Shown here: positions 6,285 through 9,255 of the stretch, one piece after another | Position numbering within the stretch: position 1 is the first letter of the stretch | Layout of the letters: every line of letters begins with the position of its first letter | Source of the DNA: a virus | Strand: one strand, 5' to 3' | DNA: 39,738 nucleotides | IMG/VR virus record: IMGVR_UViG_3300050134_000089 | Coordinates: 1 to 39,738 of that record | The notes under the pieces: model-generated | Seen by the model: the letters and a program-made list of their open reading frames with translations, nothing else | Database searches by the model: none | Told to the model about the DNA's origin: nothing | Made by a program: the position numbers and the translations under genes

Positions 6285-6707
6285 CTATATTAAGTTCGCG
6301 AGACGCGTACTTAGAACGTTTCGGATCGCAGTATCTTGCGTGATTCCTTGAGCCTGAGCGAATTTAACCGCTAAGGTAGCATTCTGAGCAAGCATTCCAG
6401 AATAGTATGGATCACGATAAATCAGGTTCATGCTATACCCATCCTGATTGATGTGCGTAATCGCCTGTTTACCTAATACCGTGTTATAGTAAAGGTCATT
6501 ACCGTTTGCTGATGCACCACGAGCTACAGGAGCTTCTGAACTGGTCAGAATACGGGTGTTAAAAACAGACCCATATTCAGAGGGAAGCGCAGACGCATTT
6601 GTTGGATAGTTCCATTGAGACAAGAATCCTGACCCTACTAATGAGTCAAAATCTGTCTGCAATTCTGTTGAGCTAAGCATAAAATATGCTGATCTCACAG
6701 GGCCTGT
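6285..6707 (-). CDS. Major capsid protein, exon 4 of 4
   Basis: TGPVRSAYFMLSSTELQ...NVLSTRLANLI*. It begins right after the terminal G of intron C (GGUAACAGAAUUG|ACA). The frame is the same as track ORF 6285..6722. Confidence 0.75.
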   Translation of the reverse strand, partial: TGPVRSAYFMLSSTELQTDFDSLVGSGFLSQWNYPTNASALPSEYGSVFNTRILTSSEAPVARGASANGNDLYYNTVLGKQAITHINQDGYSMNLIYRDPYYSGMLAQNATLAVKFAQAQGITQDTAIRNVLSTRLANLI

Positions 6708-7043
6708 CAATTCTGTTACCACCTTATAGAGGCGAGTAGGTCATTTCTGCCTACTTCTCGGATTTTATTTATATTCCGAGTTCGGACTATCGCATACGTT
6801 ATTTCTAACGTCTTCGGGATTTAGTCTCTCAGGCTGATATGAATATTTAAGATGGTTATTCCAAGAATCGATAATCTCTTTTGCAGCTTCTTCACTTCCG
6901 AAAAACTCTGCAAAGGATTGAGTCGTGATTACTTTACCATCTTTATGTTCTTCTTTCATATCTTGCCCCTTGTTAACCTTCTATGCTGCCATAGCAAGGC
7001 ACTCCAAGTCAATTACCCAAAGTTTTAATTCGGCACACATTTT
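6708..7043 (-). mobile_element. Group I-like intron C in the capsid gene (336 nt)
   Basis: P1 hairpin AUUCGGU-aaaaugugu-GCCGAAU (7050..7028) with a U-G wobble at the phase-0 splice site. Shared blocks UUGACUUGGA and AACAAGGGGCAAGAU, hairpin GUAGG-cagaaauga-CCUAC, and 3' end GGUAACAGAAUUG. Contains ORF 6765..6959. Confidence 0.7.
6765..6959 (-). CDS. Intron C-encoded small protein (64 aa), homolog of the intron A ORF
   Basis: SD-like AAGGGG 8 nt upstream. FAEFFGSEEAAKEIIDSW...YSYQPERLNPEDV aligns with THIFDSYDECIDIIRQICRYNQPERSKREDV of ORF 8249..8572. No known homing-endonuclease motif seen. Confidence 0.55.
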   Translation of the reverse strand: MKEEHKDGKVITTQSFAEFFGSEEAAKEIIDSWNNHLKYSYQPERLNPEDVRNNVCDSPNSEYK

Positions 7044-7220
7044 ACCGAATCTATCCATACCCTCGATACCGCTCATAAATTTATAAGCATTGTTGGTATC
7101 AAGAGTCGTAGCCACTAAACTAAAGTCACTAATACCTAGGTTAGTTGGATTATCACCATTGGAACCACCACCAGCATTAATCTGGGAAGCAGCTGAAACA
7201 ATATAATCACGCAAAATTAG
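7044..7220 (-). CDS. Major capsid protein, exon 3 of 4
   Basis: LILRDYIVSAASQINAGGGSNGDNPTNLGISDFSLVATTLDTNNAYKFMSGIEGMDRFG. It starts after the intron B terminal G (7221) and ends at U7044 in the P1 of intron C. Track ORF 6981..7223 runs on into intron C. Confidence 0.75.
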
Positions 7221-7911
7221 CAATCTGTTACTTTTGTGACCTGTTCTTTATACAGGCGGAGAAACCTCTTCGGATCTCTCTCTCATAGTTACCTATGAGT
7301 TCAGACTTTCGCATCTCTATTTCTAGAGTCCAACCGCTAAGTCGTTCACGGTGGTATTAAATTACCATTTATGTTAACCTTTAAGAAAAGGAGAACACTC
7401 ATGTGGACAAACGAACAACTTGCCTATCTTGCTGGAGTAATCGACGGTGAAGGCACGATTTACGTTTCTAAAAGAAAAAATCGCGGTCTTGATGATTATT
7501 GGCCAAGAGTACAAATTGTAAATACCAACAAACCAATGATGGTATATATCCACAATACGTTTGGTGGTCTTTTTTACGAAAAGAATAGGAGTAAGCATTC
7601 CAAAAAATGGAAAACACAATATGAATGGGTTACAAATCGAACCCTTATGGATATCATATTGCCTTTGGTTATTCCCTATCTCATCTGCAAAAAACCGCAA
7701 GCTGAATTGATGATAAAATTTAGAGATACCTTTCAGAAAAACACCAAAATTCGTGTCTCTCAAGAAGTTTTGACTCTTAGAATCGATATTTTTCATCAAA
7801 TGCAATCCTTAAACAAACGTGGCATTTAAAACCTTCCGCCTTGTTGCCCTTTCACCAGGGTGATAAGGATTTCCAAGTCAATCAGGTTAGATTTATCGAG
7901 GACTAATTTTA
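7221..7911 (-). mobile_element. Group I-like intron B in the capsid gene (691 nt) with antisense LAGLIDADG gene
   Basis: P1 hairpin GAGGAU-uaaaauua-GUCCUC (7917..7898) with a U-G at the phase-0 site. AUAAAUCU..CUGAUUGACUUGGAA block nearly identical to intron A. GNRA hairpins CUCUA-GAAA-UAGAG and CUCAUAG-GUAA-CUAUGAG. 3' end AAGUAACAGAUUG. The P1 loop is complementary to the start of exon 3 (UAAUUUUG), which is P10-like. Confidence 0.7.
7401..7829 (+). CDS. LAGLIDADG homing endonuclease (single-motif, about 142 aa), antisense to its host intron
   Basis: MWTNEQLAYLAGVIDGEGTIYV... carries the LAGLIDADG motif (LAGVIDGEG). AAGGAG SD 8 nt upstream of the ATG at 7401 (the track start 7371 is less likely). 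The size fits homodimeric I-CreI-type enzymes. Confidence 0.8.
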   Translation: MWTNEQLAYLAGVIDGEGTIYVSKRKNRGLDDYWPRVQIVNTNKPMMVYIHNTFGGLFYEKNRSKHSKKWKTQYEWVTNRTLMDIILPLVIPYLICKKPQAELMIKFRDTFQKNTKIRVSQEVLTLRIDIFHQMQSLNKRGI

Positions 7912-8076
7912 ATCCTCGGCTTGGCGCATGGCTACAGCAAGTCTTTCACTCACCCAAGCCAATACCTTTTACGCCGCAGCTAAGAGGGCGTATTCACCCT
8001 CCTGATCTTGAAGTATCACCTGTTCATTGATGATACAACCAGTTCCAAAAAAAGCCATTTGCGCATCGATTATGTC
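7912..8076 (-). CDS. Major capsid protein, exon 2 of 4 (contains in-frame TAA at 7969..7971)
   Basis: DIIDAQMAFFGTGCIINEQVILQDQEGEYALLAAA[TAA]KVLAWVSERLAVAMRQAED. It starts after the intron A terminal G (8077) and ends at U7912. The sequence on both sides of the TAA reads as a continuous capsid E-loop/spine-helix region in one frame. Confidence 0.65.
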
Positions 8077-8656
8077 CTATCTGTTACTTATTGACCTAAA
8101 TTAATCCGGAGGATGGAATCGAACCATCGTGGGACTGACTTGTCACTTTCGTGGTTTGTCGCTGTCCGATCCCTATCACGGGACTGCCTCACACCATTAT
8201 GGCATCTCTAGCATATTTAGGCGGGCCAAATCTTCTCAGCTGGCCTCACTATTTCTCAATAGTGTTCAGAGCACCGCATCGCATACATAATGTTTGATCT
8301 TTAGGCATCCATGTATTCATATGTCCTAATTCTTCACATTCTTTATATACGTCTTCTCGCTTGCTGCGTTCAGGCTGATTATATCTGCATATTTGACGAA
8401 TAATATCGATGCATTCATCATAACTATCAAAAATATGTGTTAAACAAACTTCTTCTTGATTATGTATCATTTCACCCATCAAAAAAAACCCTGAGTGACA
8501 TTTTTGAACCCAAATATGTGAAATGTTTCTAAGATTAAATGCATCATCACTTTCTAAATATATCCATTCCATAATCTTGCCCCTTGTTGTCCGTCCACTT
8601 TATGCGGCGAGGAGTTCCAAGTCTATCAGAGAAGATTTATACAGCGCAACACGTCT
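8077..8656 (-). mobile_element. Group I-like intron A in the capsid gene (580 nt)
   Basis: P1 hairpin ACAGCGU-agacguguu-GCGCUGU (8663..8641) with a U-G at the phase-0 site. P10-like pairing GACAU/GUGUU with the exon 2 start. Shared blocks CUGAUAGACUUGGAA and ACAAGGGGCAAGAU. CAC-GAAA-GUG hairpin. 3' end AAGUAACAGAUAG. Contains ORF 8249..8572. Confidence 0.7.
8249..8572 (-). CDS. Intron A-encoded small protein (107 aa), no recognisable nuclease motif
   Basis: AAGGGG SD-like box upstream of the ATG at 8572. The N-terminal 65 aa resemble free-standing ORFs 19845..20036 and 20085..20291. The C-terminal part shares QPER..EDV with the intron C ORF. Confidence 0.6.
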   Translation of the reverse strand: MEWIYLESDDAFNLRNISHIWVQKCHSGFFLMGEMIHNQEEVCLTHIFDSYDECIDIIRQICRYNQPERSKREDVYKECEELGHMNTWMPKDQTLCMRCGALNTIEK

Positions 8657-8896
8657 ACGCTGTGGAACCTGTGCAGGGGGGTCGATGCCCGAATTTCCCA
8701 ATTGAATAGTTGGGGGAATCAAGGCTCTTGGTCTCATAAAACGGCATGTAGTTCCGCCATTAACAGGCATCGAAACCTTATCGCAGACCGTAATATAGTT
8801 CATGGTAGGAGTTGGGACGTAAAGCATAGCGGGAGCTAAGCTTTGTAAGATCATCGGCCCCAAATTTCCTGTATTCGTAATCATGAGTTTTCCCAT
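8657..8896 (-). CDS. Major capsid protein, exon 1 of 4
   Basis: MGKLMITNTGNLGPMILQSL...TTCRFMRPRALIPPTIQLGNSGIDPPAQVPQR. The F.R...L....L.(E/N)G..P pattern is typical of HK97-fold capsid proteins. Track ORF 8600..8896 continues into intron A (..VALYKSSLIDLELLAA*). Confidence 0.75.
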
Positions 8897-9045: not shown

Positions 9046-9255
9046 TTACCAAAACAATTCATAGTTATTGGGAATCTTTTTCATTCTGTATTCATCAGTT
9101 TTTGGTTTGAATCCATGTTTAGATTCATCTTTCACAGGAACATAATAGTAATTCGAATGTGAATGAATACTCCAGACATATTGCGACAAATCTTCATCAT
9201 CTTTTATGCGGACTAATTTATGTATATCGCCGCCGATCAAAGCATATTTCTCCAT
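9046..9255 (-). CDS. Hypothetical small protein (69 aa)
   Basis: Track ORF on the operon strand, between the scaffold and capsid genes. No motif recognised. Confidence 0.45.
   Translation of the reverse strand: MEKYALIGGDIHKLVRIKDDEDLSQYVWSIHSHSNYYYVPVKDESKHGFKPKTDEYRMKKIPNNYELFW

Follow-up and report, generated by a model that had tools for sequence, protein, structure and literature searches.

The major capsid gene of a tailed phage carries, inside a group I-type intron, a LAGLIDADG homing endonuclease gene that points backwards, and the frame lying codon-antiparallel to this gene on the capsid mRNA strand (the mirror frame) is kept free of stop codons and equipped with start signals in most of its antisense relatives. 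The product of this frame seems not to matter, as judged from sequence comparison: stops appear to have been removed while the mirror sequence itself drifted. We lean towards reading the mirror frame as a translated cover ORF, which would protect the capsid pre-mRNA from polarity or decay. The wider proposition, that introns of highly expressed phage mRNAs must stay covered by ribosomes and that antisense endonuclease genes evolve a full-length antiparallel ORF for the sake of translation alone, we consider evenly balanced. The selected mirror frame with its start signals is what appears to be new here, the antisense layout being already known; in the non-subscription literature searched, no description of a maintained mirror frame was found.

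Genome and capsid gene

The window, namely the whole stretch of DNA that was analysed (39,738 nt), is a complete tailed-phage genome of 39.7 kb with terminal repeats, and includes genes for a portal, a terminase and a major head protein (PHROG 1357). No related capsid was found in cultured phages. A host call from genome bins containing relatives was rejected, as these bins belong to unrelated phyla and look like binned phage contigs. The capsid gene is divided into five exons on the minus strand (Table 1), and taking out the four inserts leaves a stop-free reading frame, of whose 320 residues 302 (94%) are identical to the capsid of L007, an intron-less relative.

Table 1 Features of the capsid locus. 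Positions refer to the window; features of the minus strand are in part given in reading direction.
Feature	Position	Strand	Remarks
Major capsid protein gene	6285..8884	-	PHROG 1357; 320 aa once spliced
Capsid exon 1	8884..8657	-	alignment to intron-less capsids
Intron A	8656..8077	-	
Sense filler ORF, intron A	8249..8572	-	
Capsid exon 2a	8076..7996	-	alignment to intron-less capsids
Core-less mini-intron, 30 nt	7966..7995	-	P1 with U.G, P10, terminal G, in-frame TAA
Capsid exon 2b	7965..7912	-	alignment to intron-less capsids
Intron B, group I-type, 691 nt	7911..7221	-	after capsid codon 121, phase 0
P1 of intron B	exon 7918..7912 with 7903..7897	-	7 bp, U.G pair
P10 guide with exon 3	7911..7904 with 7219..7212	-	8 bp
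Intron B core, 5' half	7824..7890	-	P3 5' strand, P4, P5, P6 and P6a 5' strands
Intron B core, 3' half	7221..7362	-	P6a', P6', P7 (guanosine-binding site), P3', P8 (GAAA loop), P7', P9-P9.2, terminal G
Leader ORF, 9 codons	7796..7837	-	GGAAGG 7837..7832 at P6/P6a 5' strand, ATG 7825
Mirror ORF, codon-antiparallel frame	7374..7811	-	TAAGGA 7811..7806, ATG 7796, 140 codons
Single-motif LAGLIDADG homing endonuclease gene, 142 aa	7401..7829	+	antisense, fills P6 loop
Predicted sigma70-type promoter and ribosome site	7352..7393	+	positional conservation in relatives
-35 TGGTAT	7352..7357	+	complement of P6a 3' strand
-10 TAACCT	7375..7380	+	17-nt spacer, TG at 7372-7373
Capsid exon 3	7220..7044	-	alignment to intron-less capsids
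Intron C	7043..6708	-	
Sense filler ORF, intron C	6765..6959	-	
Capsid last exon	6707..6285	-	

Anatomy of intron B

The borders proposed in the first-pass annotation for intron B (exon U7912, first intron base 7911, terminal G7221) were confirmed, and the core helices P3, P4, P6, P7, P8 and P9 could all be placed. Pairing of P3 reaches 5.8 of 6 in 33 family introns, compared with 3.9 in swapped controls, and P6 and P7 present compensatory variants among the same introns. P10 tracks synonymous changes of the 3' exon, with 6-9 pairs, in the 14 introns that share the intron B site. The strand of the core, on which the antisense claim depends, was re-checked with core profiles that were built without any window sequence and then run on both strands. 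The 5' profile matched at 7895..7827 (E 4e-13) and the 3' profile at 7362..7221 (E 6e-26), both on the minus strand only and neither on the plus strand. By its sequence intron B is a group I-type intron, and as such it would be expected to splice itself. The intron family goes unrecognised by Rfam, whose models matched no group I intron in the window, in its capsid region or in a relative that has short introns lacking ORFs.

Capsid CDS position 363 is one insertion site shared by the window, L082, L002, L011, L018, L026 and L042, and the introns found there differ in cargo, some having endonucleases of various clades, others fillers, and others again no ORF at all. At other capsid CDS sites (300, 309), enzymes closely related to that of the window are found. 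These observations suggest that the loop cargo of capsid introns is frequently exchanged. Within 8077..8380 (minus strand), the P7 of intron A is a variant in which an additional C is bulged, and a long 3' extension follows P9; the match of this intron to the 3' profile is split.

The endonuclease gene and its orientation

The plus-strand ORF was confirmed together with its Shine-Dalgarno sequence, AAGGAG, at 7388..7393 (plus strand), and its stop codon falls within the P6a strand of intron B. The protein matches Pfam LAGLIDADG_1 (PF00961) with 29.6 bits at a cut-off of 23.1, so that Pfam and the core profiles agree with what had been claimed from the letters alone, a LAGLIDADG gene antisense to the minus-strand group I intron around it. 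The gene call is further supported by 10 homologs. D15-G16-E17 and K97 are invariant across 11 homologs. The AF2 model of the endonuclease has a pLDDT of 91.5 and is matched by Foldseek to I-CreI (E 8e-9, TM 0.79), fold matches to I-CreI-type structures having TM values of 0.79-0.82. E17 aligns with D20 of I-CreI and K97 with K98, the acidic metal ligand and the conserved lysine of these enzymes, respectively. I-CreI, I-MsoI and I-CvuI, the best matches in both sequence and fold, are single-motif homodimeric LAGLIDADG enzymes; they differ from the window's protein, to which they are 17-25% identical, in being encoded in sense in algal chloroplast rRNA introns, whereas the phage gene is antisense in an intron of a protein gene.

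A dimer model formed via the motif helix scores 0.71, the best control scoring 0.23, with a pLDDT of at least 84 and 92% of contacts shared between runs. The mark used for this score was reached by 20 of 30 solved pairs and by 1 of 23 single chains, and the score expresses likeness to solved dimers, which may include memory of solved homologs, and not binding. The intron-less junction shows symmetry at no more than 4 of 11 pairs, which is within background, and the target of the endonuclease is therefore assumed.

The first-pass annotation regarded antisense endonuclease genes as rare, which does not hold for these phages. In a capsid-ascertained set, comprising 80 loci chosen by capsid similarity plus the window, 28 introns contain a LAGLIDADG gene, 17 of them antisense and 11 sense, and an antisense case in phage LittleE had been published (PMC3706429). 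The six nearest homologs of the endonuclease are all called opposite to their flanking genes, between minus-strand intron halves.

Promoter of the endonuclease gene

A consensus promoter scan of the window gave nothing above chance and missed the weak -10, and a best-hexamer count was only modestly above shuffles. As both scans were weak, we adopted a positional test with control introns. On the endonuclease strand, a TANNNT box stands at an offset of 27-28 from the P7 strand in 47 of 69 antisense introns and in 5 of 56 other introns. Among the antisense introns its consensus is TATAAT/TATACT, often TG-extended, and, at a distance of 17 nt upstream, the complement of the P6a strand contains a -35-like hexamer. 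The window's own TGGTAT-17-TAACCT is weak alone and is in register with its sister locus, L082. The independent promoter that the antisense layout had been said to imply is thus predicted from a box at fixed offset. A search of the plus strand for an intrinsic terminator was negative, and the plus-strand RNA may consequently run into capsid exon sequence.

A dedicated and conserved promoter is also what one would look for if the backward layout were mainly regulatory, the antisense RNA dampening capsid expression, an interference that the first-pass annotation had considered possible, or separating the timing of the endonuclease from the late capsid burst; nuclear antisense genes likewise use their own promoters (PMC9548176, PMC3073962). 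In a variant of this idea, translation of the mirror frame may shield the two RNAs from pairing. We give regulation very little credence as the main reason for the layout, since sense endonucleases are found in these capsid genes too, in some cases within one and the same phage, and since filler ORFs in introns without an antisense gene are not predicted by it.

Avoidance of stop codons in the mirror frame

A TTA, CTA or TCA codon in the endonuclease gene produces a stop in the mirror frame. In the window's genes these three codons account for 48% of Leu and 25% of Ser, and the endonuclease gene has none over 132 codons. Under the genome's codon usage, 132 stop-free mirror codons have a probability of about 2e-4, and only 3 of 802 windows of ordinary genes were stop-free in the mirror. 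The first-pass annotation had found no protein-like features in the minus-strand ORF (7805..7374) and set it aside. The absence of such features stands in so far as the ORF has no Pfam match or confident fold, but chance does not account for the open frame, and it is on this frame that the strongest unexpected selection falls.

The same avoidance appears among relatives, however they are collected, although it should be considered that the loci are kin and that all counts given here hence overstate independence. In the capsid-ascertained set, the antisense genes (n=17) have TTA/CTA at 8 of 296 Leu positions, each of them at a gene end, and TCA at 0 of 188 Ser positions, compared with 90 of 217 Leu and 56 of 192 Ser in the sense genes (n=9), or 8/484 and 146/409, respectively, for Leu and Ser together. 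An endonuclease-ascertained set consists of 90 non-redundant homologs (73 antisense, 11 sense and 6 without intron call). Here, an inner mirror stop is absent from 60 of the 73 antisense genes and from none of the sense genes (0/11) or of those without intron call (0/6). Three further antisense genes have one inner stop, and 63 of 73 were classed as open. Pooled over Leu and Ser codons, TTA/CTA/TCA number 4 of 1574 in open, 213 of 600 in sense and 66 of 203 in closed antisense genes; as the open class is defined by the absence of these codons, the informative points are the size of the class and the A-ending codons that it retains. Indeed, ACA, CCA, GCA and ATA are still used in open-mirror genes. 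The trait is shared by single-motif genes of the P6 loop and double-motif genes that follow the core, and the open state extends across many clades at 30-40% identity, while the closed state requires about four changes on the tree. Four-fold sites differ by 55% within close pairs, so that stops would accumulate without selection.

The open frame could in principle be a by-product of codon preference in the endonuclease (tRNA supply), of composition or of ancestry, with no present role. Codon bias in GC-rich genes does yield open mirror frames, the loci are related, and lineages with closed frames survive. We nonetheless consider this highly improbable. The endonuclease genes have a GC content of 30-45%. 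Neither the sense endonucleases nor the ordinary genes of these phages avoid the three codons, the loss is confined to the stop complements, and start signals track the open state. As for ancestry, synonymous sites are near saturation, and an open frame that was only inherited would have closed.

Ten antisense genes, 8 of them adjoining capsid sequence, have a closed mirror and normal codon use, from which it follows that cover is not obligatory; in these ten the other two reverse frames are not open either. Loci L124, L130, L132, L136, L164, L173, L177 and L180 are antisense, lie in capsid introns and combine a closed mirror with a lack of mirror start signals. They retain the promoter pattern and are thus natural controls for the cover hypothesis.

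Start signals, extent and product of the mirror frame

Of 62 open genes, 52 have an ATG with a Shine-Dalgarno sequence at the 5' end of the mirror frame, and none of the 10 closed or 11 sense genes does; the same test in internal windows of the open genes gave 0-2 of 62. In the window, the mirror ORF is preceded by a short leader (Table 1), whose TGA overlaps the mirror ATG at 7796 by one base, and the sister locus L082 is arranged likewise. This arrangement hints at a function of the leader. The mirror ORF of the window ends with TAA at 7376..7374, just ahead of the P6a 3' strand. Stop positions vary widely in relatives, and many of the frames read into P6'/P7 or beyond. At L106, L125, L156, L165 and L179 the mirror frame is open for 500-1100 nt beyond the endonuclease gene, and these long frames probably cross the core into downstream coding sequence. 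An in-frame fusion of the mirror ORF to capsid exons was rejected for the window, where stops occur on both sides.

If the mirror ORF encoded a functional protein, such as a maturase, an endonuclease inhibitor or a capsid-linked product, one would expect its sequence to be conserved. The proper start signal and the length of 130-300 codons are in keeping with a functional protein, as are the frames that extend 500-1100 nt past the endonuclease in a few relatives and a slightly milder character of four-fold-site changes (mean BLOSUM -0.52 for open pairs, -0.69 and -0.86 otherwise). However, four-fold sites are as variable as in controls: 55% of them differ within open pairs, compared with 53% for sense pairs and 60% for capsids. 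By this test there is no purifying selection on the mirror protein. Mirror identity is as low as 42-68% in most pairs whose endonucleases are 85-93% identical, and unrelated endonuclease classes give unrelated mirror sequences. No Pfam match was obtained for any of eight mirror proteins, and the mirror protein model has a pLDDT of 42 and a pTM of 0.22, which, given a shallow alignment, is weak evidence alone. We therefore find a functional mirror protein very unlikely.

A proposed role for the mirror frame

In the scheme that we infer, intron B would be a mobile group I intron that excises itself from the capsid pre-mRNA. The endonuclease would be made from a separate plus-strand transcript starting near 7387 and, as a homodimer, would act on intron-less capsid alleles during co-infection. 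As its gene points backwards, the capsid pre-mRNA would otherwise be burdened with some 460 nt of non-coding, pyrimidine-shifted sequence, and selection would hold the mRNA strand translatable across the insert. Ribosomes would load right after the P6 5' strand and translate 140 codons, with the stop placed just ahead of the 3' core half. What would count is that the strand is translated, whatever the product, and the most likely effect would be to prevent early (Rho-type) termination, or decay, while the 3' half of the ribozyme is still to be made.

What favours protection of the capsid mRNA is that nearly all inserts could be covered by ribosomes, together with the pyrimidine shift over antisense genes and the behaviour of Rho. 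Of 49 family introns measuring 334-1272 nt, 47 have no more than 252 nt of continuous sense strand outside ATG-started ORFs, which is about the size of an ORF-less intron, and sense endonucleases, filler ORFs and mirror ORFs cover the insert alike. The C/G ratio of the mRNA strand is 1.07 over antisense genes and 0.66 over sense genes, and Rho is reported to target untranslated and pyrimidine-rich antisense RNA (PMC11551753, PMC13323073). With the three stop-complement codons avoided, ribosomes are probably able to cross the insert and the capsid message is probably kept intact. Counting against the cover reading are the closed relatives, whose antisense genes have the same C/G ratio as the open ones, the window's own insert, which is not C-rich (74 C, 76 G), and those mirror ORFs that enter the core, as splicing of T4 td is reportedly impaired by ribosomes that are present in the core (review PMC3073962).

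Alternatively, ribosomes on the mirror ORF might aid folding of the ribozyme, either by clearing misfolds of the 460-nt loop or by timing the closing of P6/P6a. The start sites lie at the P6/P6a 5' strand, the stop in the window comes just ahead of P6a', and translation of the upstream exon chaperones intron folding in T4 (review PMC3073962). Stops in relatives, however, are scattered and often lie in the core or beyond, and a general limit on uncovered stretches is left unexplained by folding alone, which makes a folding role unlikely.

If the wider proposition is true, these introns provide a natural and repeated case in which selection acts on an overlapping gene of 130-300 codons only through its start and stop signals, and also an easy path toward new overlapping genes. 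Long antiparallel ORFs held open by selection without a conserved product bear on the origin of overlapping genes. There is so far little direct evidence on how bacterial mRNAs tolerate hundreds of intron bases without polarity, and here a single capsid gene offers a natural comparison of sense genes, fillers and open and closed mirror frames. A synonymous change in the endonuclease can close the mirror frame while leaving enzyme and ribozyme untouched. Annotation is affected as well, since gene callers list the mirror ORF or break the capsid up, and the family is a source of compact I-CreI-like enzymes and of introns missed by Rfam.

Comparison with known systems

The orientation alone is already known, as both LittleE and nuclear rDNA introns have antisense endonuclease genes. 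According to the LittleE report (Pope et al. 2013, PMC3706429; JF937101), the major capsid gene of this phage contains a U...G intron with a bottom-strand LAGLIDADG ORF, gp14, and splicing was demonstrated by RT-PCR; its section on the intron makes no mention of a promoter, a mirror frame or a family-wide pattern. In our analysis, gp14 matches the profile of the window's endonuclease family (E 2e-14) and the 3' core of the intron matches the family profile (E 6e-7). The two differ in that gp14 is placed after the core and not in the P6 loop, has 58% GC and has two adjacent mirror stops mid-gene.

I-DirII and I-DsqI are antisense His-Cys genes in nuclear rDNA group I introns (PMC9548176, PMC3073962), with their own promoter and with in vivo expression shown for them. 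Their host is a eukaryotic rRNA that is never translated, so a translatable opposite strand is not needed, and they further differ in family and in having a spliceosomal intron and poly(A). T4 td with I-TevI also has an ORF in the P6 loop that contacts the core and has its own promoter (PMC3073962), but in sense orientation, of the GIY-YIG family and with translation restrained by a hairpin. The ShiLan insertion in actinobacteriophage methylases (PMC11855218) resembles the window in hiding an endonuclease in another frame over a stop-free frame of the host strand. There, however, the HNH endonuclease is on the same strand, no intron was detected and the open frame is fused to the host protein, whereas the open frame of the window is not joined to the exons and is provided with a start of its own.

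An antisense LAGLIDADG homolog also lies at 2501-2914 of L185, in a MuF-like minor capsid CDS (Gordonia phage Sitar gp16), and the arrangement recurs in Nordenberg, Thing3, Lennon and SchottB. The gp16 CDS is annotated '+ intein' and its own frame remains open; no match to the core of the window's intron family was found at this locus.

Mini-introns and filler ORFs

The mini-intron of the window, 54 nt upstream of intron B, is absent from intron-less capsids. Core-less inserts never occur by themselves: 23 of 23 loci that have one also have a full intron downstream, in most cases no more than about 100 nt away (Fisher p 3e-6, counting kin loci as independent). The window's mini-intron is probably spliced by a neighbouring core, likely that of intron B; with the insert taken out, no readthrough is needed to account for the in-frame TAA of exon 2. 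Such inserts, 30-93 nt long and likewise with P1, P10 and terminal G but no core, are found at capsid CDS positions 261, 272 and 309 in L002, L006, L011, L017, L018, L021, L023 and others, and since the length of most of them is not divisible by three, removal must take place at the RNA level.

The fillers of introns A and C start directly after the P6 5' strand, whose GGGG could serve for ribosome binding, and extend into the core; filler ORFs that are similar in kind but unrelated are present in many relatives. The filler of L006 (intron at CDS 540) resembles by eye a small free-standing gene of the window at 9046..9255, upstream of the capsid, with a shared start of about KFALIGGDIHKL, which suggests that filler ORFs are recruited from nearby accessory genes.
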